A stretch of 12,894 nucleotides of DNA from Chthoniobacteraceae bacterium (lineage in GTDB: Bacteria; Verrucomicrobiota; Verrucomicrobiia; Chthoniobacterales; Chthoniobacteraceae), in assembly GCA_031409655.1 (NCBI GenBank), contig JANNXQ010000076.1, positions 1 through 12,894 of the forward strand, read 5' to 3'. The notes under the pieces are model-generated. The model was not told the origin of the DNA. It worked only from the letters and a program-made list of their open reading frames with translations, and did no database searches. Made by a program: the position numbers and the translations under genes. This document shows positions 1-12,610 of the stretch, piece by piece; positions within the stretch are counted from its first letter, which is position 1; each line of letters starts with the position of its first letter.

Positions 1-195
1 CAGCAGAGCCTGCTGTCGTCGCAGCCACACCTAGCAGGCGTTGGTGTGGCCACGTCACGGTCAATTAAGCCGCGAGAGCGAGATCTTCGTAATCGTTCGC
101 GTTTATTTTTTTGCCCGGAGATTTTACGTGGCCAACCAGGCATCCACGACATGCCGCCTGTGTCTCGAGTCAAAAGTCGAAACCAGTACGCCCCC
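1..195 (-). ncRNA. ssrA: tmRNA (transfer-messenger RNA), 5' portion; 3' end lies beyond the left window edge
   Basis: Minus strand from 195 reads GGGGGCGTACTGGTTTCGAC, a typical tmRNA 5' tRNA-like end. PK1 stems are CGTGG(148-144)/CCACG(131-127) and TGCCTGG(142-136)/CCGGGCA(118-112). An A-rich ATAAAC precedes a tag frame at 100-65 encoding ANDYEDLALAA-stop. A second H-type pseudoknot has GCCACACC(50-43)/GGTGTGGC(31-24) and GCCTGCT(39-33)/AGCAGGC(14-8). Confidence 0.95.
65..100 (-). other. tmRNA proteolysis tag reading frame ANDYEDLALAA
   Basis: GCG AAC GAT TAC GAA GAT CTC GCT CTC GCG GCT TAA. The C-terminal LAA matches the known ClpXP-recognised ssrA tag ending. Confidence 0.92.
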
Positions 196-273: not shown

Positions 274-3200
274 TCACGGGGTGGGCGGCGCCGTGTCGAG
301 AGGCTGGAACAGGCGCGTCGCGGGGACGATTTCCCGGGGCTGGCTATCGCTCTCCCATTTTAGGTCCACCCAGCCATCTCGCCTGACGTTCTGGAACTCG
401 AGTCGTAGATTGTAAAATTCACCCCCGCGCAGAACGATCGGCACGCCAGAGATTTCGGAATCGATCTGAAAAACGTGATTCCACCGATCGACGACAAGTT
501 CATCATTCACCCAGAGCCGCACGCCTTCATCAGTCACCAGGAAAAAATTGTACTCTTCGCTATACATCGGGCGGATCCGGCCACTCCACCGGACTGAGTA
601 CGGTTGCGCGGGTAATCCTGGTGTTGGCGCGGTCTCGTCCGACCAATAGAAGGCGATCCGGTCGTCATTCCGCGTCATTGCAAGAGCCTCAAAGTTTTCC
701 CCCGAATAGTATTCACCCAAAAGGCCACGCTCAGGTCCCTTGGTCGATGAAAAGGCAAGACCCGATCCTGGCACTTGCGAGCTGGGACGCACCGGCACGT
801 GACGTTGTCCCCGCAAGGAGCCTGATCCAGGAACTGCTTTTGAAACGGGCGCAGCCGCTCCGCCCGAACCACTGCTCTCAGTCACGACCAACTTCGCGGC
901 AGTAAAATTCGGCGTCATTGCTGGTGCAGTCGGCGCGGTCGTAGTCAGCCGCTCTCGGGGAATGATTTGGCGGAATTGCGTGCCGCTTTGCCATTCGAGC
1001 CGGGCTACGGCACCCCACTCATTGTCATAGTACTCCATGCGAATATCGACGGGAACTCCGGCGGTCAACGCGATCACAGCCTGATAAGGAGTCGTCCCCT
1101 GATCCTGCCACTGGTCGATGAGCAGTTGGTTATTCACCCAGAGGCGAACGCCATCGTCTGTCGATGTGGTGAAGGTGTAGGTTTCGCTGTAGAGCGCGTT
1201 CACTTTGCCCGTCCAGCGGATTGAAAAAAGATCACCCGGGACGAGCGGGTCCGGCGATCCGAACCACTGAAAATTGATAGCTTCGTCGATCCGCGTCAAG
1301 GTCGCGGTCTCGAAGTTCTTTCCCGCAAAATACTCACCTTTGAGGCCTGAGAGTGTCGCACCGGGCAATGGTGTGTAGGTGACGCTGAGGGTGTTCCCGG
1401 CGACATTCCGCTCCGAGACCGCATCACTGCAAGCATTGGCAGGAAGATTGACCGTGACCTCACCATTCGCAGCAGGATTTACGGTCAGCGCATACGCGCC
1501 TCCGCTCCCAGTCAGGAGCGCAGGCACTCCATTTGCGACGACGAAATCGGAGACGGTGAGGCCGGTGACGCTCTCACCGAAGCTGACCGCAACCGTGAAA
1601 GGCCCTGAAACCGAGGCACTCGGGGTAGTCAAAACGGGGACAGGCCGGCCCGAACCGGCAGACAACTGATCCCGAGGGACGATCTGACGGGCCTGGCTGG
1701 CGCTCTGCCATTCCAAGCGGGCAACTGCACCCCAAGCATTCTCGAAATACTCAAGACGGACATCGACCGGCACGCCGGCAACCAACGCGGTCGTTCCCTG
1801 GTGCGCGGTGGTTCCCTGATCGACCCACTTATCGACGATGAGTTGATCATTCACCCACAGACGGACGCCGTCGTCGGTGGTGGTAATGAAGGAGTACGTT
1901 TCACTGTGCAGCGGGATGACCTTCCCGGTCCAACGCACCGAAAACAAATCTCGGGGCAGAGCTGGCGCCGGACCTTCGAATGGCCAGGAGAAATTAATGA
2001 TGCCATCGACGCGAGTAAGTACATGGCGTTCGAAGCTACGGCCACTGTAATAGTCGCCCGAAAGACCATTGACCACTGCTCCTGCCAGAGGTGTGTAAAT
2101 GGCACTGAGGGTATTCGAAGCGACGTTCCCTTGATTGTCGGAATCCACACACCCGCCCGCAGCGAGATTGATGCTCAGCGGACCGGGTGCAATCGGAGTA
2201 ACGGTGAGGATGTAGGAAGCACCAGTCCCGGTGAGGGAATTCGCCGAGCCATTCGCGAGCACAAAATCCGAGGCTGAGAGGCCCGTCACGGGCTCGCCGA
2301 AAGTAACGGCTAGGGGGAAAGCTCCAGAGACGGCGGCACTCGCCGTCGTGAGCACCGGCACCGGCCGGACATTTCCGGCTGAGAGACGCGATGCCGGAAT
2401 GACCTGACGCGCTTGCGCCCCACTTTGCCATTCCAGTTTCACCGCAGCGCCCCACTCGGACTCGTAATACTCGAGCCGGATGTCCGCGGGAATCCCCGCG
2501 GTGAGAGCGATCGTGCCCTGCCGCTCGGTGACGCCTTGATTGGTCCAGTTATCAATCAGGAGCTGTCCATTGACCCAAAGTCGGACGCCGTCGTCCGCCG
2601 AGGTGAAAAAAGTATGGGCTCCTGTCGTCTGCGGGAGAACCTGACCAGTCCAGCGGATCGAGAAATGGTCCTGTGGGAAACCAGGCGCCAACGCCTCAAA
2701 AGGCCAACTGAAAGCGATCGTTGCGTCCACTCTCGTGAAAGCAAATGTCTCGAAGTCTTCACCCTCATAGTAGTCGCCGCTCAACCCATTCACAACCGCT
2801 AGCGAAGGTGTGTATGCTACACTGAAGGTATTGGAAACCGCATTGCCGTTTCCGGAAACGTCGTTGCAGCGGTTGAGTGGGAGATTAATCGTGACAATCC
2901 CGCCGACGATCGGCGTCGCCGAGACACTGTAGATGGCACCGCTCCCCGCGACGGCAGTCACGCTGCCATTTGTAATCACGAAATCCGCTGCCGTGAGGCC
3001 AGTCACGTCTTCACTAAACGTTGCCGTAACGCTAAACGGGCCGGACACTCCCGTTCCTGGCCCGGTGAGAGTGACCGTAGGCGCGATGCTATCAATCGGA
3101 GCCGACGCGATCGCGTCATCAATTTGCCGGACATAAGCCGCAAGATTCACAAGATCGCCCGCGGATAACGAAACGCCGGTGTGCGCGGCGATGGCGTCGC

Positions 3201-6200
3201 TGACCGTGACCGCAGAGCCATCGTGCAGGTAGGGAGCAGAATTCCAGAGACCGCGGAGCGTGGGAGTATCGAGACCGGTGAGCGCTGCCCCTAAGCGCTG
3301 GCCACTCGACGGTTTAAGCGTGCCGACACTCCGGAATACTCCGAGCGCGCTCTCGGTGAAGCGCGCGCCGGTATGGCAGCTAGCGCAGTTTGCCTGACGA
3401 AACACCTGCTCCCCGGCCAAAGCTTCTGAGGTCAGCGAGCCATCCCCATTTCGCTCGGGGCTGTTACCGGATTGCGTCAGCGAAGCAACATAGGCAGCGA
3501 GCGCATCGAGATCGCCGCTGACGCCCGCCTTGGCGACCCCGAGTGGTTGATCACGGGTACCGGTATGAAAGTCGGTGTTGGCCATCAGACCCAAGCCGCC
3601 GGCGAAGTTGCGAATCTGTCCTTCGAAATCCTGCACCTCGTCGAAATTTCCCGTCCAATGCAATGGCCCCTGCGTCGTGCCGCCATGTCCGCGGAGAACT
3701 ATGGTATTACGCAACCCCTCGCCAAATTGAGTGAAATCCCAAACGCGACCGTCTTGGCCACCGTCATTGTGGCAGGCAGCACAGGAGACGTATTCCTGCA
3801 GCGCCAAGCGTTCATCGCGAGCGTCGTAGAAAAATTGCTTCCCCTTGAGCACTGCGGGGCTGAGCAGATCGTCGGTTACGCAAACTAGCGTCGCGGCAAT
3901 CGGAGGCACTACTTCAACTCCGTCGATGATTGGGCCGATAGCATGTACCGTGATCGTGCGGTCCATGAAGTTCTGGACATAAAGCGTGCGACTGTCGGGT
4001 GAGAGTGCGAGACCTTGCGGCGCTCGGCCCGCATCAAAACGAAAGAGTTCATTGCCGGACCAGGTGTCGGTAACGGAGACGGTGCGGCTGCCTTCCAGCA
4101 CGGTGAAAAGATAAATGCCACGAGAGTCGAACGCCGAGGCGTTGGCAATGCCAGCGTTGTCAAAATCAATGCGATCCGCCAGAGCGTCGGTGACCGGAAT
4201 GCCTGCGCCGAGCGGGAGACGCGAGACGACACTGCGCACGGCCAGGTCATGAGTGAGAGTCTGCCCGTTCCGAAGAGTACCACGCTTGATGTTGTCCTGT
4301 TTCGATGGCACCCAGGCATGCAGGCCATCCGGCGATATGGCAACGCCACCCACGTAGTTTGGAATCCCACGAGCGGACACGGAAGTATCCGGCTCCTCGC
4401 TGTGCTGAAGGATTACAGTGCGTTCGATCGCGCTGAGCAGTGGATTCACTACGACGATCTCACCACCGTGCTTTACGCCCGATACTTCCGTCTGCGGACT
4501 TGCCGTGCCTTCTCCGGGAAGCGGCGGAGTGATGAAGCGTGAGACGAAAACGCGCGTACTATCCGCATTTACCGAGACGTGCCGAATATTGGGACCGAGT
4601 GGAATCGCGGCGGTTTGTGCGCCATTGGTGGGGTTCAGCCGGAGTAATTGTCCACCCTCCTCACACGCAATCCACGCATCGGTTCCGTCCGGGTCAAACG
4701 CGAGGCCGAACGGTCGCGAAGCTCGCGGCAGACTGACAGTGGCAGCGACCGCGAAGGTGGTTGGGTTGATGATACTAAGCGTGGAAGCCCCAGCATTCAC
4801 GACCCAGACGCGACCATCAGGGGCAACCGCCAGGGAGCGCGGTGCGGTGCCGACATTCACTTCCGCGAGGCGCGCACGAGTCACGACATCGAAGACAGAA
4901 ACGCTGTTGTTATCCCCATTCACGCACCAGATGCGGTCGTTGCCAGAAACGCGATCTTCAAACACGATACTGCTGGAGCGAGTCGGATTCAGGGCAGTGA
5001 GCGGCGCATGAATCGCCTGATAGAAGCTTGTGGTAATCTCCGCACCGGTGCCATCGCGAACCGTCAGGGTGACCTGATAACGTCCCGGTCCAAGATAAGT
5101 GTGCGAGGCAGTGGACGCGCTCGAGAAGCCCGTCTCCGGAGTGCTATCTCCGAAGTTCCATCGGAACTCAGGACTCAACCCTCCGAGGGCTTGCCCGGCG
5201 AAGATCACATTCGTGCCTGAAACGACCGGGGCACCAGTAAGCGGACTGACCGCCAGGGGGTTGTTCACGGTCCATGTGAAGACCGCACTAGCAGGAACGG
5301 AGAAGCCATCATTCACCGTCACCGTGGTGTTGTAACTGCCCACTGTCGCCGGCGTTCCAAGAATCAGTCCAGTGGTCGGACTGATGACCATTCCGGGGGG
5401 AAGGCCGCTCGCGCTATAAGTGAGGATGTCTCCGTTGACATCGGTGGCGAGGATTTGCAGGCTCGCAGGGACCCCGATCACCGAAGTGCGGGCTCCCGAG
5501 TTAGTGACAACGGGTGGCGCTGGGAGGGCGTTGGCGTTCACATTCAAGTTCCAGGCTTCGATGTCGTGGTTGTTCGCAAGACCCCCGGTGGCGGCTGAAA
5601 AGCCGAACCACGCGACTCCGTTCGTGAGCGCCGCGAGGTTAAGGGCGGGCACCGTCATCACGGCCGTCGTCGGGCGAGTGGTGGCGAGTCCTTGAACGAG
5701 GTAGACCCGCAAGACATCGGCAGGGCCATCGTACTCTACCCAAACTGTGTGACTCAGTGCATTCTCGAGATCGAATGCCGGCGTGTGGGTTCCGAGATGA
5801 CTCGTCGCGTCACCATTGGCGGTGACGCCCAGATGATTGCCATTTAAGTCATTGGACCCCTGATATGAGTCGATCTCGACCACCAGGCTTTTCGCGATTC
5901 CTCCGTAACCTAATCCCCCCGCCGCTTCTCCGATCGCGTTAGCCCCCACTCCCTGGACGACGAACGCCATTCCGTCAGCCCCATCCGCGGTGCCGTGTTG
6001 GCGAAAGACGAAGCGCGAGATGAAAGACGTATTTGATCCCACCGAAACTGGAGCCGTCAGGAAGGCGCTGCCGACACGGGAGTTCAGGTTTGGGGTAAGC
6101 CTGAGGACATTGCTCGTAACTGAGGCGACGTTGTTCAGCGTAAAGCCGGCGCTGTTTGGGAAGGTGCTAAAATTCTGCACCAGCGTCGGGGGCGAAACCG

Positions 6201-8043
6201 TCCAAAGGAAGTCTTGAAACGACGAACTCGCCCCACCCGTCACGGTCGCTCGGACATTATAGATGCCGAGGGTCGTTGGTGTTCCGCTGACCAGGCCAGT
6301 CTCAGCCACCAAGGCGATTCCTGGCGGCAAACCAGTCGCGCTGTAAGTGCGCGTGACGCCGGTTGGTCCACTCGAGATCAGTTGCAGTAAGGCGGGCGCA
6401 TTGAAGACGCCCGACTGATTGCCCGGATTGGCCATGGAGACTGAGCCTGTGGCATCGACTTGCACGATGGCTGCCGTCGAGTAAGCGCCCGAGGGCAGGA
6501 TTCCGAAGAGCATCCAGTAGCCGGGTGTCATCACGTTGAGATTGGCGTGTGCGGTGATCGAATAATTACCCGGTATCGTCTCGGTGAATGGGAGCACGAG
6601 CCTCCGGAGGTCCGTATTCATCGAGTGGGTAATCGCGGACATCTTGATGAAAGCGAAGTTGGTGATGCCTGGCGTGGCGCTCACGGAAAAGACCGAGCCG
6701 ACGCCGACCTGGGTGGGCACCGTATTGAGCACAGGACGCGTCGCTGGCGAGCCATCGGGATTGAAGAGTTGCGGGGGCGTGTAGAGTTGCGCGTCCTGGT
6801 GATCCGCCGAGTTTCCACTCAAGCCGCCCCCACCGGAGAGCACGCGTCCGTCGGGCATCAGCAGGGCTAAGGAGTGATAGTTCCGCGGCACCGCCATACT
6901 GGATGCGGTGCGCCACAGGCCCGTCGTCGGGTTCCAGATTTCTGCGGCAAAGATAGAGCCAGCGTCCGAGAACTTGATGCCCGAGGTATTCCCGCCGATC
7001 ACCATCACTTCACCGTTCGGCAGGACCACGGAGTTGGCGAATTGTCGGGCGTTGGCCATCGGTGCCGTGGAGGCCAGGGTGGGCGGATTGGTGTTGAGAT
7101 TCACCGTGTATGCGTCCACCGCACTATTACCGGTCGTTCCATCGGCGATGTTATTCAGGGTGTTGATGCCGCCACCGGCCACGACTATTCGACCCTGCTC
7201 ATACATGGCCCAGGCACCTTCTTTCGGATAGTGGCCCCCAGGCACGTTCGTCCCCGAGTTCGCCATGCTCCCAGAGCCGGCCCAAGTGATCCAGCGATTG
7301 ATGTCGGTGGGTCCAAAATGAAACAGCCGTCCGTCGGAATTGACCACAACGAAGGGATGCCACCGGGTGATGTAACCCGCCTCGAGCAACACGTTACCCC
7401 AAGGAATGCCGGTGAGAACGTTCCAACCGGTCGTTTGATTCCAACGTTCAGCCGTGCCGCCGCCCGTTCCATTCCCAGTAACGGTCCACACCTGGCCATC
7501 GGGCAAGGCGACGCTCGTGTTGTACCACCGTCCGCCATTCATATCCTGAACTCGCGTCCATTGATTGGTCCGCCAGTCAAAGGTGCTCGCGCGGACGACT
7601 TCGTTGCGGCCCCCATTCACGAGGACGCGACCATCGGGCAGCATCACGATGCCGCCGCAGAACATGTCGTGGGTGGGATGATTGTATTCGACGAATTGCC
7701 CCGTCGCGGGATCCCACGTGGCCGCGTAGGTGAACTCTACTCCCGTCGGAAACGTGGTTCGGCGATTTGACGCAAACGTCAGCAGGCGGCCATCGGGTAA
7801 CTGCGCCGCGGAGACTGGGATGTGCGGGGCCCATGGAATCACCGGTCCCCAGACGCCCTTCGTTGCATTATCCGCCGGCCCCTCGAGGCCCGTCGGCCCC
7901 TTCACGGCAGGCGCGAGTCTCTGGGCTTCGGCTGCGAAGGTATCGTCATCCGCGTGATTGAGCGCATCGGCGCGAGCGGCCAACGGCGCTCCGAGGAGCG
8001 CGAGCGCGAACACTGCGGTGATCCGGGTAAAGAAGATTTTCAC
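274..8043 (-). CDS. 2589-aa secreted multidomain protein: galactose oxidase-like (AA5) copper radical oxidase + DUF1929, putative Ig, L-type lectin, putative Ig, PKD, YVTN beta-propeller, di-heme cytochrome c peroxidase-like domain, (Ig-like-PA14)x3, linker, PA14
   Basis: GTG start overlaps the upstream stop. Sec signal MKIFFTRITAVFALALLGAPLAARA. Oxidase motifs HDMFC (C129), RWY (Y174), RNYHS (Y389/H390), THS (H473). YSAxGLPPG Ig repeats; lectin GADGMAFV/VEIDSY/GFSAATGG; PKD WNFGD; heme motifs CAACH (3769-3783) and CASCH (3373-3387) followed by TPTLRG..PYLHDGS; four D(D/E)GVRLWVN PA14 motifs. Confidence 0.95.
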   Translation of the reverse strand: MKIFFTRITAVFALALLGAPLAARADALNHADDDTFAAEAQRLAPAVKGPTGLEGPADNATKGVWGPVIPWAPHIPVSAAQLPDGRLLTFASNRRTTFPTGVEFTYAATWDPATGQFVEYNHPTHDMFCGGIVMLPDGRVLVNGGRNEVVRASTFDWRTNQWTRVQDMNGGRWYNTSVALPDGQVWTVTGNGTGGGTAERWNQTTGWNVLTGIPWGNVLLEAGYITRWHPFVVVNSDGRLFHFGPTDINRWITWAGSGSMANSGTNVPGGHYPKEGAWAMYEQGRIVVAGGGINTLNNIADGTTGNSAVDAYTVNLNTNPPTLASTAPMANARQFANSVVLPNGEVMVIGGNTSGIKFSDAGSIFAAEIWNPTTGLWRTASSMAVPRNYHSLALLMPDGRVLSGGGGLSGNSADHQDAQLYTPPQLFNPDGSPATRPVLNTVPTQVGVGSVFSVSATPGITNFAFIKMSAITHSMNTDLRRLVLPFTETIPGNYSITAHANLNVMTPGYWMLFGILPSGAYSTAAIVQVDATGSVSMANPGNQSGVFNAPALLQLISSGPTGVTRTYSATGLPPGIALVAETGLVSGTPTTLGIYNVRATVTGGASSSFQDFLWTVSPPTLVQNFSTFPNSAGFTLNNVASVTSNVLRLTPNLNSRVGSAFLTAPVSVGSNTSFISRFVFRQHGTADGADGMAFVVQGVGANAIGEAAGGLGYGGIAKSLVVEIDSYQGSNDLNGNHLGVTANGDATSHLGTHTPAFDLENALSHTVWVEYDGPADVLRVYLVQGLATTRPTTAVMTVPALNLAALTNGVAWFGFSAATGGLANNHDIEAWNLNVNANALPAPPVVTNSGARTSVIGVPASLQILATDVNGDILTYSASGLPPGMVISPTTGLILGTPATVGSYNTTVTVNDGFSVPASAVFTWTVNNPLAVSPLTGAPVVSGTNVIFAGQALGGLSPEFRWNFGDSTPETGFSSASTASHTYLGPGRYQVTLTVRDGTGAEITTSFYQAIHAPLTALNPTRSSSIVFEDRVSGNDRIWCVNGDNNSVSVFDVVTRARLAEVNVGTAPRSLAVAPDGRVWVVNAGASTLSIINPTTFAVAATVSLPRASRPFGLAFDPDGTDAWIACEEGGQLLRLNPTNGAQTAAIPLGPNIRHVSVNADSTRVFVSRFITPPLPGEGTASPQTEVSGVKHGGEIVVVNPLLSAIERTVILQHSEEPDTSVSARGIPNYVGGVAISPDGLHAWVPSKQDNIKRGTLRNGQTLTHDLAVRSVVSRLPLGAGIPVTDALADRIDFDNAGIANASAFDSRGIYLFTVLEGSRTVSVTDTWSGNELFRFDAGRAPQGLALSPDSRTLYVQNFMDRTITVHAIGPIIDGVEVVPPIAATLVCVTDDLLSPAVLKGKQFFYDARDERLALQEYVSCAACHNDGGQDGRVWDFTQFGEGLRNTIVLRGHGGTTQGPLHWTGNFDEVQDFEGQIRNFAGGLGLMANTDFHTGTRDQPLGVAKAGVSGDLDALAAYVASLTQSGNSPERNGDGSLTSEALAGEQVFRQANCASCHTGARFTESALGVFRSVGTLKPSSGQRLGAALTGLDTPTLRGLWNSAPYLHDGSAVTVSDAIAAHTGVSLSAGDLVNLAAYVRQIDDAIASAPIDSIAPTVTLTGPGTGVSGPFSVTATFSEDVTGLTAADFVITNGSVTAVAGSGAIYSVSATPIVGGIVTINLPLNRCNDVSGNGNAVSNTFSVAYTPSLAVVNGLSGDYYEGEDFETFAFTRVDATIAFSWPFEALAPGFPQDHFSIRWTGQVLPQTTGAHTFFTSADDGVRLWVNGQLLIDNWTNQGVTERQGTIALTAGIPADIRLEYYESEWGAAVKLEWQSGAQARQVIPASRLSAGNVRPVPVLTTASAAVSGAFPLAVTFGEPVTGLSASDFVLANGSANSLTGTGASYILTVTPIAPGPLSINLAAGGCVDSDNQGNVASNTLSAIYTPLAGAVVNGLSGDYYSGRSFERHVLTRVDGIINFSWPFEGPAPALPRDLFSVRWTGKVIPLHSETYSFITTTDDGVRLWVNDQLIVDKWVDQGTTAHQGTTALVAGVPVDVRLEYFENAWGAVARLEWQSASQARQIVPRDQLSAGSGRPVPVLTTPSASVSGPFTVAVSFGESVTGLTVSDFVVANGVPALLTGSGGAYALTVNPAANGEVTVNLPANACSDAVSERNVAGNTLSVTYTPLPGATLSGLKGEYFAGKNFETATLTRIDEAINFQWFGSPDPLVPGDLFSIRWTGKVNALYSETYTFTTSTDDGVRLWVNNQLLIDQWQDQGTTPYQAVIALTAGVPVDIRMEYYDNEWGAVARLEWQSGTQFRQIIPRERLTTTAPTAPAMTPNFTAAKLVVTESSGSGGAAAPVSKAVPGSGSLRGQRHVPVRPSSQVPGSGLAFSSTKGPERGLLGEYYSGENFEALAMTRNDDRIAFYWSDETAPTPGLPAQPYSVRWSGRIRPMYSEEYNFFLVTDEGVRLWVNDELVVDRWNHVFQIDSEISGVPIVLRGGEFYNLRLEFQNVRRDGWVDLKWESDSQPREIVPATRLFQPLDTAPPTP
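940..3090 (-). repeat. three tandem ~240-aa Ig-like + PA14 units; approximate bounds
   Basis: The Gly codon of the PA14 start motif (GLSGDYY, GLSGDYY, GLKGEYF) falls at 2787, 2067 and 1347, exactly 720 nt apart. Each Ig unit has FxExVTGLxxxDFVxxNG. Confidence 0.85.
3110..4980 (-). other. YVTN beta-propeller + di-heme CcP/MauG-superfamily module within the giant CDS; approximate bounds
   Basis: Propeller repeats such as VGTAPRSLAVAPDGRVWVVN and AGRAPQGLALSPDSRTLYVQN, then two CxxCH motifs, LHWTGNFDEVQDFE and PYLHDGS. Confidence 0.85.
6450..7870 (-). other. copper radical oxidase module (Kelch propeller + DUF1929/early-set domain) within the giant CDS; approximate bounds
   Basis: Repeated LPDGRVLxxGG Kelch blades. 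Residues equivalent to galactose oxidase C228, Y272, Y495, H496 and H581 are all present in matching local motifs. Confidence 0.9.
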
Positions 8044-9878
8044 TGGTGGGTAAGTGCGGGCGTTTCGGCGGGATCAGAGGGGAGCGGCTGTCCGATGAAG
8101 GTCTCGTCCGTGAGGGTCCGCAGGAAGGCCACGAGCGCGGCCTTTTCCTCGGCGGTAAGGCCGAGTCCGGCCACCGGATGTTTCGCGAGATTGGGGTCCA
8201 GGGTCAGCGAGCGCTGCACGCCGTGATCGTAGTGCTCGATGACTTCCTCCAAGGTCGAAAAACGTCCGTCGTGCATGTAAGGGCCAGTCACGGCCACATT
8301 CCGAAGCGAGGGAACTTTGAAAAGATTCCGATCAATCTGGAGGTTAGTAACTTCCATGCGACCTAAGTCGTCCTCGCGCGGGATGAGTCCGTTGTTCGCG
8401 AATTGATTGTTCGTGAAAAGATTCCCGCCGTGGCAGTGGAAGCAATCCGCACCGCGCAATCCCATGCGCGGGTCGTGTTCGGTGATGAAAAGCTGCAAGC
8501 CGAGTTGTTCCTGCTCGGTCAGCGTCTCCACCCGGCGCGCGGCGCGGTCGAACTTCGAGTCTTGCGAGACGAGCGTGAGAACGAACTGTTCAAGCGCCAG
8601 CCCGATCCGCGCCGGTGTGATATTCTCCGCATCCCCTGCCCGGCCAAAGGCCGCGGCAAATAGCGCGGGATACGCCAAGTCGGCCGCCAGTTTGCCGACA
8701 ACGCGATCGAGCGTCTCATTCATCTCGAGTGGATCCTCGATGGGCACGAGGGCCTGCGCACGCAACGACGGCGACCGCCCATCCCAGAAAAATTCCTTCC
8801 CCCACGCCAGATTGAAGAGCGGCATCGCATGGCGACGACCCTTCTGTCCCTCCGCACCGAGGCTGATCCGCCGGACATCGGAGAAGGCCGCCGTGCGATC
8901 GTGGCACGAAGCGCAGGATTGGCTGTTATTGATCGAAAGCCGCGGATCGTGAAAGAGACGGCGGCCCAGTTCCACACCCTCCACGGTCAGCACGTTATCG
9001 GCGGGAAGCTTTACCTTGGGCAAACGCTGGGAGATCTCCAGGTGGTAAGGGGTCGTCGCCGTGCCTCTGACTTCCGGCGCCGCGCTCAGCGGGAGTTCTT
9101 GAAAGGTGTCCGTCTTCACCGCCCGCAACGAAAACGCGCCGGAAAGATTTGTCTTCAGGCGGGGCGCCAAGGGATCGCCGGGACGCGAGTGGGTGGAGTT
9201 GCCGTCCTTTTTGAAATCGATCCCCGCCAGGAGCTTCGCGGCATCCAGTGCGATCTGGAAAGTGAGCGGTCCGCCGCCCGTGAAACGCACGGGCAGTTCG
9301 ATCATCGTCGCGAACTCGTCATTCCCGAGATGATAGGAAAAGCCCGCCGTGCCGGATGGCGAATCCAGCCAACGCCCTTCGATGGCGAGAAAGATGTAGC
9401 CGTCCGCCCAGTTCCAATGCATCCCGCAGACTTCCGGATGGAGCGGATCATCTGGCGAACGCAAGTTGGGATCGGAGTGATTGGTCTCCTTATCCACCCC
9501 GACGCGGAAGCGGATCGCGCGGAACTCTTCTGCCGGCAAGCCGTCCGCGACGGCCGAGAGGCGCCCCTTTCCCGCACTCAGAAATGCCTGCCAGTCCCGG
9601 GCTTCCAACCACGACCCATCCACGCGCTGCAGCGCCAAACCAGAGACGAGCAGGTCGAGCCGGGAAATGGCGATCGCGCCATTCTTCGGGACTTGGATCT
9701 TCTCGTTCAAAGCGAGACGCGCTCCGCCGGCCGAAGGCTCCACCTGCAGGCGCATGACCTCAGCCGCAGAAGCCAGAGTGACCATGGCAAGAAATGGAAA
9801 CGAAAACCTACCGACGGCACTGAATACCCGTCTCACGGCCCACAAGAAGGTGCCAGCGACGGAGGGAAGTGAGTTCAT
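8040..9878 (-). CDS. MbnP-family copper-binding domain fused to MbnH-like di-heme cytochrome c peroxidase (MauG/CcP superfamily), secreted
   Basis: N-terminal domain has the MbnP signature GV..NHSDP....PL....MHWNWADGYIF (WxW at 9408-9416) and YHLG. C-terminal domain has VELGRRLFHDPRLS, CASCH (8901-8915), FWDGR, CFHCH (8430-8444) and FKVPSLRNVAVTGPYMHDGRFSTLEEVIEHY. ATG 9878 has GAGG 9 nt upstream; the hydrophobic leader ends LASAA. Confidence 0.9.
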   Translation of the reverse strand: MNSLPSVAGTFLWAVRRVFSAVGRFSFPFLAMVTLASAAEVMRLQVEPSAGGARLALNEKIQVPKNGAIAISRLDLLVSGLALQRVDGSWLEARDWQAFLSAGKGRLSAVADGLPAEEFRAIRFRVGVDKETNHSDPNLRSPDDPLHPEVCGMHWNWADGYIFLAIEGRWLDSPSGTAGFSYHLGNDEFATMIELPVRFTGGGPLTFQIALDAAKLLAGIDFKKDGNSTHSRPGDPLAPRLKTNLSGAFSLRAVKTDTFQELPLSAAPEVRGTATTPYHLEISQRLPKVKLPADNVLTVEGVELGRRLFHDPRLSINNSQSCASCHDRTAAFSDVRRISLGAEGQKGRRHAMPLFNLAWGKEFFWDGRSPSLRAQALVPIEDPLEMNETLDRVVGKLAADLAYPALFAAAFGRAGDAENITPARIGLALEQFVLTLVSQDSKFDRAARRVETLTEQEQLGLQLFITEHDPRMGLRGADCFHCHGGNLFTNNQFANNGLIPREDDLGRMEVTNLQIDRNLFKVPSLRNVAVTGPYMHDGRFSTLEEVIEHYDHGVQRSLTLDPNLAKHPVAGLGLTAEEKAALVAFLRTLTDETFIGQPLPSDPAETPALTHQ

Positions 9879-10126: not shown

Positions 10127-10282
10127 ATGCGCCACTTCCTCCTCCTCCTCCTGGTCAGTGTAGGATTCGGTTTCTCCGCCTGCCACTCGGCGCCCAAGTC
10201 CTCCGCGCGCATCTACGAAGGCGATGGCCCTTCGATCACTTTCGGGGAATCTCACGCCGGCGGCCCCCTGGATACCCGCTAA
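10127..10282 (+). CDS. small putative lipoprotein, 51 aa (MRHFLLLLLVSVGFGFSACHSAPKSSARIYEGDGPSITFGESHAGGPLDTR)
   Basis: Read by hand; shorter than any ORF in the provided track. Basic N-terminus, hydrophobic core, lipobox-like FSA-C19 and mostly G/C-ending codons. Fits the gap before ATG 10347. Confidence 0.75.
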   Translation: MRHFLLLLLVSVGFGFSACHSAPKSSARIYEGDGPSITFGESHAGGPLDTR

Positions 10283-10346
10283 GGAGACCCTGGGGAATGC
10301 GGTTGACCGGCGGGTGGCTCCCTTTTTGAATCCGCTCGCCGCATCC

Positions 10347-11438
10347 ATGGAAAACTCCCCCTCCCTCCTCCCCCGCCGTTCCTTCCTGCAAACGATCGCC
10401 GCCGCTGGTGCCGCGTCGCTCGCGGGCTCCGTCTTTGCCGCCGACGCGGTGAAAAAGATCAAGATCGGCATCGATAATTTCGCGGTGCGCGCGATGGGCT
10501 GGAAAGCGCCCCAGTTGCTGGACTTCGCGGCCTCTCTGAAGTGTGACACCCTCCTGATCTCCGACCTCGCGGCCTTGGAAACTCTGGACGAGGGCTACCT
10601 CCGTGAAGTGCGAGCCAAGGCCGACTCGCTCAGACTCGAAGTCTATCTTGGCTCCTGGAGCATCTGCCCCACCTCGGTGCGGTTCAAAAAGGATTGGGGC
10701 ACGGCCGAAGAGCATGTGCGCCTCGGTCTGCGCTGCGCAAAGACGCTGGGCTCGCCCGTTTTCCGCGTGATCCTCGGCGCCTCCGATGATCGGAAAAGCG
10801 AGGGCGGCATCCGCGCCCGAATCGCGGATACGGTGAAAGTGCTCAAGGCCTGCCGGCAGGACGCCCTCGACGCGGGGGTGAAGATCGCGGTCGAGAATCA
10901 CTCCGGCGACCTGCACTCGTGGGAGCTCGTGGATCTCATCGAAGCCGCCGGTCCGGATTTTGTCGGCGCCAACATCGACTCCGGCAACGCTGCCTGGACG
11001 CTCGAAGATCCACACGACGTCCTCGAGAATCTCGGCAAATACACGATCTGCTCCAGCCTGCGCGACGCCATGATCTGGGAGACGCCGGAGGGCGCGACGA
11101 TCCAATGGACGGCCGCCGGCGAAGGCCTCATCGACTGGCCGCGCTACCTCGCCCGCTGGCGGGCGCTCTGCCCGGCGACGCCGATCATCATCGAAACGAT
11201 CTCCGGCTTTGCCCGCAACTTTCCCTACAAGACCGACGACTTCTGGAAGCACTACGACAAGCGCCCCGCGGCGCTCGCAAACTTTGAAGCGCTGGCCAAG
11301 AAGGGCCACGCCATCGAGACCTTCAAACCCCCCGCGGGAGATGGAAAGAAGGCTGCCGAGCAGGAGTATCAGAAAGGCGAGATCACGCGCTCGATCCAAT
11401 TCCTCCGCGGGAAGCTCGGGCTCGGCGTCAGGGCTTAA
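10347..11438 (+). CDS. Tat-exported sugar phosphate isomerase/epimerase family protein (xylose isomerase-like/AP-endonuclease-2 TIM barrel)
   Basis: Twin-arginine leader PRRSFLQTIAAAGAASLAGSVFA directly after Met at 10347. Family motifs include AVENH, NIDSGN, GEGLIDW and IIIET. Confidence 0.88.
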   Translation: MENSPSLLPRRSFLQTIAAAGAASLAGSVFAADAVKKIKIGIDNFAVRAMGWKAPQLLDFAASLKCDTLLISDLAALETLDEGYLREVRAKADSLRLEVYLGSWSICPTSVRFKKDWGTAEEHVRLGLRCAKTLGSPVFRVILGASDDRKSEGGIRARIADTVKVLKACRQDALDAGVKIAVENHSGDLHSWELVDLIEAAGPDFVGANIDSGNAAWTLEDPHDVLENLGKYTICSSLRDAMIWETPEGATIQWTAAGEGLIDWPRYLARWRALCPATPIIIETISGFARNFPYKTDDFWKHYDKRPAALANFEALAKKGHAIETFKPPAGDGKKAAEQEYQKGEITRSIQFLRGKLGLGVRA

Positions 11439-11451
11439 GGAACGACAGAAA

Positions 11452-11492
11452 GCGGTAGCCTCCGCGTGGTTGCGATGCGGATGGCTAGCCGC
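11452..11492. terminator. imperfect GC-rich hairpin between convergent genes (possible terminator or single REP)
   Basis: GCGGTAGCCTCCGCGT (11452-11467) pairs with ATGCGGATGGCTAGCCGC (11475-11492) with two single-base bulges and one G-T pair. The minus strand continues TTTCTGTCGTT, a weak U-tract. Confidence 0.4.
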
Positions 11493-12610
11493 CGACTCCG
11501 AGTTCCTTCCCCATCGCACTCTCGCCCGTGAGTTCCTCGATCTCCTTCGCCAGTTCCTCCGCCTGCGTTTGCAGCGTCACCATCTCCTTCTCGATCGCTT
11601 CGACATGCCGGCGCGCCGTCTCGTCGAAAAACGCCGGGGTCTGCGTCGTCAGCCGGTGCAGTTCGTAATCGGGACTCTCCTTGAGCGCATTGTGCGCCTC
11701 CAGCACGCGGATCATTTCCAGCTCGATGCGCTCCCACAGCCGGCGCAGTTGCGCGATCTCGCGCTCCTCGCCGAAGTCGAGCACCGTCAAGCCTTGCCGC
11801 AGGATAAAACCGTCCGGGTCTTCCGCGATGTTCCGCAACGTGGCGAGGTCGCCGTGGTCATTCGCGTGATTACTGGCCGCGGTCAGCTTTTCGAAAGTCT
11901 CGTGCTTTTCCGGCGCGCCCGCCCGGTGGATGGCGTCGCTCCGCGCGCCATGCCAACCCCGCACGCGAAGCGCGACTCAAAAAATGATGGGCCTGCGGCG
12001 TTCTGGGCATGGCGCGACGGAGCGCCGCCATCCACCGCGCAAACAGGCACCTTTTCATCGCCTGCGCCTGCGCCTCTTCGATCGTGAAGCCCGCTTCCAG
12101 TTCCGCCAGCCGCGCCCGCGCCGCGTCCACCGGCACCCGCAGTCGCTGCAACTCCGGGTTCACGTAAAGCACCAGGTCCGTGCTCGCGATGGCCGCGGCA
12201 GCCGGGGCCCGCGCACACTCCCAGGCGACGAATAGCGAGGGTTCCGCCGCTTCCTCCAGACTCCGCAAATACCAGCGCCCCATCCTCGCGTTGCGGGCGT
12301 TGGCGGATTGCGCCAGCCACTCCACCCAGCGGCGCAATTCGGTATCGGTGCGCGCCTCCGCGATGGACCTTCCCTTGTGCTGCCCGAAGGCGATACGCGA
12401 CGGATACCATTCCTCGGCGGCATAGGCCGCAAGCTGCTCCCACGTCGCCAGCCCGCGCTGCTCCGCGATCGGGCGCAGCACCGTCGCGAAAAGATCGGCC
12501 ACCGTGCCGACATCGCCCAGCGCCGTGTGCGCGCCGCGTTCCGGCAGGCGGTAATACTGGCGCAGGGTTTGCCGCTTGCAGTTCCCGGCGGGCACCGGAT
12601 CGAGGAGCTG
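11485..12610 (-). pseudogene. degraded DEDDh 3'-5' exonuclease (DnaQ/ExoX-like) + coiled-coil/DnaJ-like gene; 5'-truncated and internally disrupted
   Basis: ExoIII motif GAHTALGD (H..D at 12529-12512) and an FGQHKGR motif are present. ExoI/II are absent and an in-frame TGA (12617-12619) lies just upstream of QLLDPVPAGNCK. The frame breaks at the 11924-12037 inverted repeat and resumes in another frame as PEKHETFEKLTAASNHANDHGDL, resembling J-domain helix III with no HPD. Confidence 0.7.
11924..12037. repeat. REP-doublet (REPIN/MITE-like) inverted-repeat element, 114 bp
   Basis: Left arm 11924-11954 and right arm 12006-12037 are reverse complements with one mismatch and one 1-nt indel. Each arm is GTGG followed by an ATGGCG...CGCCAT hairpin. 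An inner pair AACCCCGCA (11955-11963)/TGCGGCGTT (11994-12002) matches 8/9. Confidence 0.75.

Follow-up and report, generated by a model that had tools for sequence, protein, structure and literature searches.

Two overlapping genes in the window

The window, meaning the whole stretch of 12,894 nucleotides (nt) analyzed here from a Chthoniobacteraceae bacterium (assembly GCA_031409655.1, contig JANNXQ010000076.1), carries on its minus strand a gene for a fusion of an MbnP domain with an MbnH/MauG-type di-heme domain, followed directly by a gene for a giant copper radical oxidase (Table 1). Sequence comparison indicates that the pairing of MbnP-MbnH fusions with this oxidase is conserved and that the fusions concerned form a distinct clade. 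The original prediction, made from the letters of the stretch, had described the two genes as overlapping by 4 nt and as encoding between them one MbnP WxW domain, a complete copper radical oxidase site and two di-heme domains. These observations were confirmed, the overlap by the open reading frames (ORFs) and the plus-strand sequence, and the domains by Pfam matches, motifs and homolog alignment. The GTG start of the oxidase was matched by a Met start at the equivalent position of its closest homolog.

Related junctions were compared at 35 distinct loci. A 4-nt ATGA overlap was found at 18, a 1-nt overlap at 2 and a start within -8 to +40 nt at 14; one had none of these. On these sequences the tight junction of fusion and oxidase is more than chance. 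Promoter and terminator scans of the locus gave counts not above those of shuffled sequence, with no terminator-like site near the junction. The pair is slightly low in GC content (0.602 vs 0.634), as are 4% of 583 genome blocks. Scanned window proteins (six against Pfam, five against NCBIfam) gave no match to methanobactin or copper-uptake families, nor to mbnABC and the transport genes of the methanobactin operon, as had been noted from the sequence; the genome outside the window was not searched for these.

Table 1. Positions of the paired genes and their parts in the window (aa, amino acids).
Feature	Positions	Strand	Description	Basis
MbnP-MbnH fusion gene	8040..9878	-	612 aa from ATG; hydrophobic N-terminus resembling a signal peptide	Pfam/NCBIfam domains, structure model
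MbnP domain	9114..9755	-	aa 42-255; M153-H154-W155-N-W157 (MHWNW) motif, conserved H183 and H230	Pfam PF20243
MbnH/MauG-type di-heme domain	8103..9041	-	aa 280-592; CxxCH at 322 and 479; W365, Q375, P379, E385, Y550	
GTGA stop/start overlap	8040-8043	-	4 nt common to fusion stop and oxidase start; plus strand tcac	
Giant copper radical oxidase gene	274..8043	-	2,589 aa from GTG	Pfam/NCBIfam domains
Conserved HxxxD segment	7909..7968	-	H30, D34, right after apparent signal peptide; candidate copper relay or pro-peptide	
Galactose-oxidase-type (AA5-like) catalytic module	6454..7860	-	aa 62-530; C129, Y174, Y389, H390, H473	
Legume-lectin domain	5530..6174	-	aa 624-838; He_PIG Ig-like domains on either side	Pfam
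YVTN-type beta-propeller	3904..4986	-	aa ~1020-1380; fold Z 35.5 to 1L0Q, 34.5 to hydrazine synthase beta	
Internal di-heme domain	3124..3861	-	aa ~1395-1640; CxxCH at 1421 and 1553, W1463, acidic NFDE..D.E motif, conserved H1621	
Big_12 and PA14 repeats	304..3093	-	tail swapped for other modules in most homologs	Pfam

The MbnP-MbnH fusion

The fusion matched MbnP (PF20243; E 2.5e-28; 99.7 bits against a cut-off of 27) and CCP_MauG (E 4.6e-54) in Pfam, and its structure was modeled with a predicted local distance difference test score of 78 and a predicted template modeling score of 0.74. In a fold search the MbnP domain was found to have the MbnP fold (Z 18.3, root-mean-square deviation 3.1, 208 residues aligned to 7L6G). 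Sequence search with this domain did not recover 7L6G, which was recovered by profiles (E 1.7 and 0.32) and by fold; the profile alignment that places MHWNW of the fusion on MAWNW of 7L6G is weak (E 0.32). NCBIfam scores of the fused protein fell under the cut-offs (TIGR04052, 44.1 vs 140 bits; TIGR04039, 245 vs 362.85 bits).

The best solved match of the di-heme domain was MbnH itself (6E1C, E 6e-49), and the MbnH/MauG-type residue set is present in full: two CxxCH motifs, a Trp, a Tyr294 equivalent and Gln/Pro/Glu. Y550 aligns with MauG Tyr294; W365 is taken, from family knowledge, to be the inter-heme Trp, and Q375, P379 and E385 the distal Gln, Pro and Glu. Among 155 aligned fusions, C322, C325, H326, C479, C482, H483, W365, Q375, E385 and Y550 were kept in every row and P379 in 153. 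W155, H183 and H230 of the MbnP domain were each kept in 154 rows and H154 in 140; within the clade that accompanies the oxidase (described below), the MbnP domain with W155, H183 and H230 was kept in 52 of 53 rows.

The giant oxidase

Pfam searches of the giant returned a Kelch/glyoxal-oxidase match, a galactose oxidase (GO)-like E-set, two He_PIG domains, a legume-lectin domain, PKD, a YVTN propeller, a di-heme domain and Big_12/PA14 repeats (3 and 4 stretches). The catalytic module found its best solved matches in galactose oxidases (9G8H, E 2.9e-89). C129, Y174, Y389, H390 and H473 align to galactose oxidase motifs and each is present in 119/119 homologs, so that the module has the Cys-Tyr pair, the Tyr/His/His ligands, the Kelch propeller and the E-set of an AA5 copper radical oxidase. 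No Trp of the giant was aligned to the W of GGSWSGG in 9G8H, and none occurred in the ten commonest homolog variants of that stretch; this W is presumably Trp290 of galactose oxidase.

The HxxxD segment at the N-terminus is well conserved near the query. In aligned oxidase N-termini H30 was found in 78/79 and D34 in 76/79, and the motif was found in 108/118 close homologs and in all 20 giants lying apart from a fusion. It was missing within 60 codons of the propeller at 5 of 53 loci, and was found in 0/27 members of a distant, ~30%-identical oxidase lineage, where several N-termini are too short to hold it. The legume-lectin domain was present in all 120 listed homologs of the giant. Glycan targeting is a candidate role, suggested by the domain names.

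The propeller/di-heme module within the oxidase

The best di-heme match of the internal di-heme domain was hydrazine synthase gamma (E 8.4e-13), and the giant scored 66 bits against the hydrazine synthase family cut-off of 1250, with no alpha subunit in the window. The domain has no MauG-type Tyr. H1621, kept in 119/119 and 116/120 members of two homolog sets, lies 17 residues past the Pro of PYLH, the spacing of MauG Tyr294; hhalign places H1621 differently. The second heme of hydrazine synthase gamma is bis-His (PMC12607021). Because propellers filled the results of structure searches with the propeller/di-heme model, the heme part was barely probed by fold.

Homologs named Steroidobacter agaridevorans and Burkholderiales also have the oxidase with the propeller/di-heme module fused to it. 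In fragments labeled Chloroflexota and Blastocatellia the module stands alone; 17 candidate stretches of viral contigs held no relative of it. Elsewhere in the window's genome, a large protein (contig C78:68604-73868, minus strand) carries a related module, 37% identical, lacking both the oxidase motifs and a His at the position of H1621.

Conservation and co-inheritance of the pair

Fusion loci (173) were drawn from genomes (80), metagenomes (80) and a sample of the order (13). Since only the best 80 by similarity to the query were kept in each of the first two sets, these are enriched for its lineage. At least 600 nt of downstream sequence was present at 158 of the loci. The oxidase lay directly downstream of the fusion at 36 (35 distinct) and within 5 kb at 2 more. 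A tree of 155 fusion rows was built after partial and duplicate sequences were dropped and the query and its own genome's paralog were added. All 36 oxidase-linked rows, the query included, fell into a single 54-row clade (FastTree support 0.99), in which 13 further rows were unlinked and 5 were too short to judge. Titles of oxidase-linked records include Verrucomicrobiaceae, Luteolibacter, Haloferula, Limisphaerales and Opitutaceae, and named relatives are almost all Verrucomicrobiota. Both MbnP and MbnH were matched in all 120 listed fusion-type proteins. The commonest neighbor was a YHYH-cluster gene (the one cluster member tested was YHYH), found at 78/173 loci, directly upstream at 58, directly downstream at 7 and nearby at 11; two oxidase-linked loci also carry one. 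An evenly drawn sample of the phylum gave only 3 non-self matches in 400 genomes.

Seen from the oxidase, an MbnH domain lay directly upstream at 32 of 42 loci. In the query's own family this held for 12/12, and among the 30 best loci of a second family for 20. An even sample of the class (380 genomes) gave an upstream MbnH domain at 7/7 giants, five of which are also among the second-family genomes. The oxidase is patchy, occurring in 13/151 own-family and 81/145 second-family genomes. In the own family, ranking the fusions of relatives by score puts precisely the 12 that adjoin the oxidase at the top.

Coordinates of fusions and oxidases were cross-matched over the 145 second-family genomes. 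Both the oxidase and a top-tier fusion were found in 72, the oxidase only in 9, the fusion only in 3 and neither in 61. The 75 top-tier fusions divide into 47 adjacent to an oxidase and 28 unlinked, and for 25 of these 28 the genome has an oxidase elsewhere. Among the nine genomes with the oxidase only, an MbnH domain adjoins it in five, and two others contain a weaker fusion or fragments at another place. At E 1e-10 no oxidase turned up in the three genomes with the fusion only, which are 72-88% complete. Seven unlinked members of the 54-row clade were also examined, and 7/7 have an oxidase elsewhere in the genome, five of these genomes repeating the second-family cross-match. The adjacency noted in the original prediction held up on survey, and the clade was found to follow the oxidase even when unlinked. 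That fusion and oxidase are kept together after the genes have separated argues for functional dependence, within kin that are not independent of one another.

Giants lying apart from a fusion (20) are mostly among housekeeping genes. In the second family they recur at two sites, the more frequent one next to a topoisomerase-like gene and the other with leuB-like and pnp-like genes on either side (judged by eye from neighbor N-termini), and some second-family genomes carry two giants.

Paralogs, neighboring genes and loci outside the phylum

The genome of the window holds a second MbnP-MbnH fusion (contig C83:1-1546), which falls outside the oxidase clade; many genomes likewise keep a second fusion. 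It apparently continues contig C111 (61/63 bases match), whose end probably carries its 5' part, and would then lie behind two tandem YHYH genes (C111:375-3872).

Plasmid records were searched for the giant, and since only 1/155 matches covers at least 80% of the query, evidence from outside the phylum is limited to a single locus. This is Comamonadaceae plasmid CP099607, where positions 11797-18104 of the retrieved stretch encode a lipoprotein-like oxidase/propeller/di-heme giant; genes for a 170-aa CxxCH protein and then for SCO come next, and no MbnP or MbnH is annotated within 12 kb (n=1). The plasmid giant lies in an aromatic-degradation region.

Within the window, a partial transfer-messenger RNA (tmRNA) gene (1-195, minus strand; Rfam RF00023, 75.8 bits; no ARAGORN call) begins 79 nt past the oxidase stop. 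Integration of the pair at a tmRNA was considered and rejected, as a tmRNA was found in 0/5 loci of relatives, some of whose contigs end early. On the other side, a xylose-isomerase-like TIM-barrel gene with a Tat-like signal (10224-11438, plus strand) is divergent from the fusion. Beyond it, two ORFs of 159 and 241 aa (11485-12595, minus strand) overlap in different frames and may be one frameshifted gene; the upstream ORF is a weak DEDD exonuclease match.

Proposed copper supply to the oxidase and its alternatives

The fusion was considered a candidate copper supplier of the oxidase because its lineage is inherited together with the oxidase. The reading we favor, to which we assign a probability of about 0.45, is that it is a dedicated supplier that forms a kynurenine site in cis and transfers the copper bound there. 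Its starting points are observations: domain content, catalytic residues, junction and co-inheritance. The MauG-type heme domain would convert Trp155, in the MbnP domain of the same chain, into kynurenine, giving a His-rich site that would bind extracytoplasmic copper for delivery to the apo-oxidase, with the HxxxD segment of the oxidase as a candidate relay or docking point. Once loaded with copper, the oxidase would build the Tyr174-Cys129 cofactor without help and, when mature, could oxidize some alcohol or sugar hydroxyl on a lectin-held surface, yielding H2O2. The internal propeller/di-heme module may consume this peroxide or re-oxidize resting oxidase. In its most elaborate form, in which a self-made kynurenine-copper metallochaperone feeds a His-tagged N-terminal oxidase segment while a hydrazine-synthase-like di-heme recycles peroxide and keeps the radical alive, the scheme is doubtful.

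Three points favor copper supply over other roles: the MbnP domain has been kept, the one locus outside the phylum has SCO where the helper would be, and deletion of mbnP or mbnH leaves copper on methanobactin. In the last case copper-bound methanobactin stays in the medium, which the authors attribute to a function in releasing copper or taking it up (PMC13729199). The original prediction had proposed the fusion as chaperone or maturase of the oxidase and was, in its interpretation, partly supported. The chaperone half is backed circumstantially, by SCO at the one outside locus and by published analogs; a role as cross-link maturase is unlikely, since galactose oxidase forms its Tyr-Cys cross-link spontaneously once copper is present, in seconds with Cu(I) and in hours with Cu(II) (PMC11611005). 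Its further proposal, that oxidase-derived H2O2 could drive kynurenine formation in a closed loop, cannot be general because most fusions have no oxidase nearby, and the giant's own di-heme module could be an alternative taker of the peroxide.

As the cross-link forms spontaneously, the helper would more plausibly be a copper donor or a redox activator than a cross-linking enzyme. The main rival to copper supply is a fusion whose heme domain uses H2O2 to re-oxidize resting Cu(II)-tyrosinate oxidase to the radical, the MbnP domain being secondary. Dedicated neighboring heme peroxidases that form their own clade activate fungal copper radical oxidases (PMC9770985). The high-valent residue set of the fusion is almost invariant, no Trp of the giant aligns with that of the GGSWSGG stretch of 9G8H, and substitution of Trp290 makes oxidation of galactose oxidase to the radical harder (PMC11611005). 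The giant, however, has its own conserved di-heme module, the MbnP domain has been retained with its Trp and His residues, and the sole readable locus outside Verrucomicrobiota has a copper chaperone, SCO; we consider activation unlikely, though copper supply and redox activation need not exclude each other. Far more remote is a true maturase, which would make a covalent cofactor in the oxidase or its propeller much as MauG acts on methylamine dehydrogenase. The MauG-type residues are kept, and mauG-like genes stand beside the copper enzyme MtoX, for which a tryptophan tryptophylquinone (TTQ) cofactor has been proposed (PMC5739008), but Tyr-Cys formation is spontaneous with copper and the Trp on which such a domain naturally acts is already part of the same chain, so that this role is very improbable.

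Two further explanations loosen or reverse the tie to the oxidase. General copper homeostasis of the envelope, with the fusion buffering or scavenging for many clients and the oxidase link an old operon kept for co-regulation, would suit the abundance of fusions beside YHYH-cluster or unrelated genes and the 28 of 75 second-family top-tier fusions that are unlinked. It fits poorly with the persistence of unlinked clade members almost only where the oxidase persists, with the exact match between the own family's top 12 fusions and those beside the oxidase, and with the second fusion held by many genomes, and we judge it quite unlikely. Less probable still is a copper-acquisition device in which H2O2 made by the oxidase at a glycan or humic surface drives kynurenine formation or oxidative copper release. 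MbnH does react with H2O2 (PMC11951088), and a part for MbnPH in releasing copper from methanobactin or taking it up has been put forward (PMC13729199). Against this, the oxidase cannot make peroxide until it has copper, no uptake family was matched in the window, and about two thirds of fusions keep the same motifs with no oxidase nearby, so the oxidase is not required for fusion maturation.

Several results weigh against copper supply itself. Copper binding and transfer by the fusion are its presumed steps. Residue 153, Met in the query, is Leu in 150 of the 155 fusion rows; this is probably the Met-ligand position of reference MbnP, which we take to be the Met two residues before the modified Trp. 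The known site consists of His, Met, water and Kyn174 (PMC11951088), and the fusion site would differ from it, that Met being mostly Leu; with W155, H183 and H230 kept, the putative site is probably His-based in both fusion clades. Fusions are common in the phylum and most stand beside YHYH-cluster or other genes instead of the oxidase. Two genomes, G695 (82% complete) and G699 (93% complete), have the oxidase and no fusion was found in them, and around the 20 unlinked giants no MbnP match and no recognizable copper gene was found within ~3 kb (neighbors judged by eye). A second AA5-type gene in the window's genome (contig C264:5702-9322, minus strand; 30% identical; motifs LFCSG, GRWY, RLYHS and VTHS; different domain layout) has no MbnH domain within 1.5 kb, and four SCO genes lie elsewhere in the same genome. 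As for the counts, they run over related rather than independent genomes, the sets of loci had been ranked by how similar they were to the query, and the cut for top-tier fusions was placed at a score gap after the lists had been inspected, with 22 weaker second-family matches unlisted. Co-inheritance, moreover, tells nothing between copper supply and redox activation. Prediction of a complex between the oxidase module (aa 26-530) and the MbnP domain, with the MbnH domain not included, scored 0.00 against a mark of 0.32 and gives no verdict for or against contact.

If copper supply is correct, the poorly understood copper site of MbnP would gain a client open to testing. In the most elaborate form of the scheme, if true, the oxidase would be the first cuproenzyme client of an MbnP site and a self-activating copper radical oxidase. 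The role of kynurenine-containing copper proteins is stated as open (PMC11951088), and a fusion clade tied to an oxidase makes the question directly testable, with the YHYH-linked paralog of the same genome as a built-in control. Should the internal module reactivate the radical, it would offer a natural way around the peroxidase that has to be added with these biocatalysts.

Comparison with known systems

The literature search returned no paper that places an MbnP-MbnH fusion next to a copper radical oxidase or describes the oxidase/propeller/di-heme architecture; its coverage excludes Kenney 2019, Manesis 2021 and Manesis 2023, whose neighborhood data may mention cases. Cuproenzymes that are paired with a copper carrier and a heme oxidant are already known from GlxA/Sco/DtpA (PMC4736821) and mtoX/SCO/mauG (PMC5739008).

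MbnP and MbnH of Methylosinus trichosporium OB3b (7L6G, 6E1C; TIGR04052, TIGR04039) share with the fusion the MbnP fold, the WxW motif and a MauG-type di-heme partner. Here, unlike in OB3b, the two are a single chain that scores under both NCBIfam cut-offs, the putative Met ligand is usually Leu, H154, H183 and H230 are conserved, no methanobactin genes were matched in the window, and the link is to a cuproenzyme. Streptomyces lividans GlxA is likewise a bacterial copper radical oxidase with a copper chaperone and a heme peroxidase, and its maturation under copper limitation requires both (PMC4736821). Its helpers, Sco and the DyP peroxidase DtpA, are unrelated to the fusion, and GlxA (~645 aa) is without lectin, propeller and di-heme modules; against NF052501, used for the comparison with GlxA, the giant gave 154 vs 800 bits. 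The mtoX-SCO1/senC-mauG clusters also combine a copper oxidase with a copper-binding protein and a MauG-like enzyme, sometimes fused, and differ in having an SBP56-family oxidase, SCO in place of MbnP, and a MauG proposed to make TTQ in the oxidase itself (PMC5739008). The alcohol oxidase and tandem peroxidase of Colletotrichum and Magnaporthe resemble the present pair in joining an AA5 oxidase to a dedicated neighboring heme enzyme of its own clade; there, that enzyme is a fungal class II peroxidase, the genes are head-to-head and there is no copper-binding domain (PMC9770985). Hydrazine synthase beta/gamma (5C2V) has the same order of a propeller followed by a di-heme domain of the cytochrome c peroxidase fold, whereas the module here scores far under the family cut-off, is accompanied by no alpha subunit in the window and is embedded in a copper oxidase.

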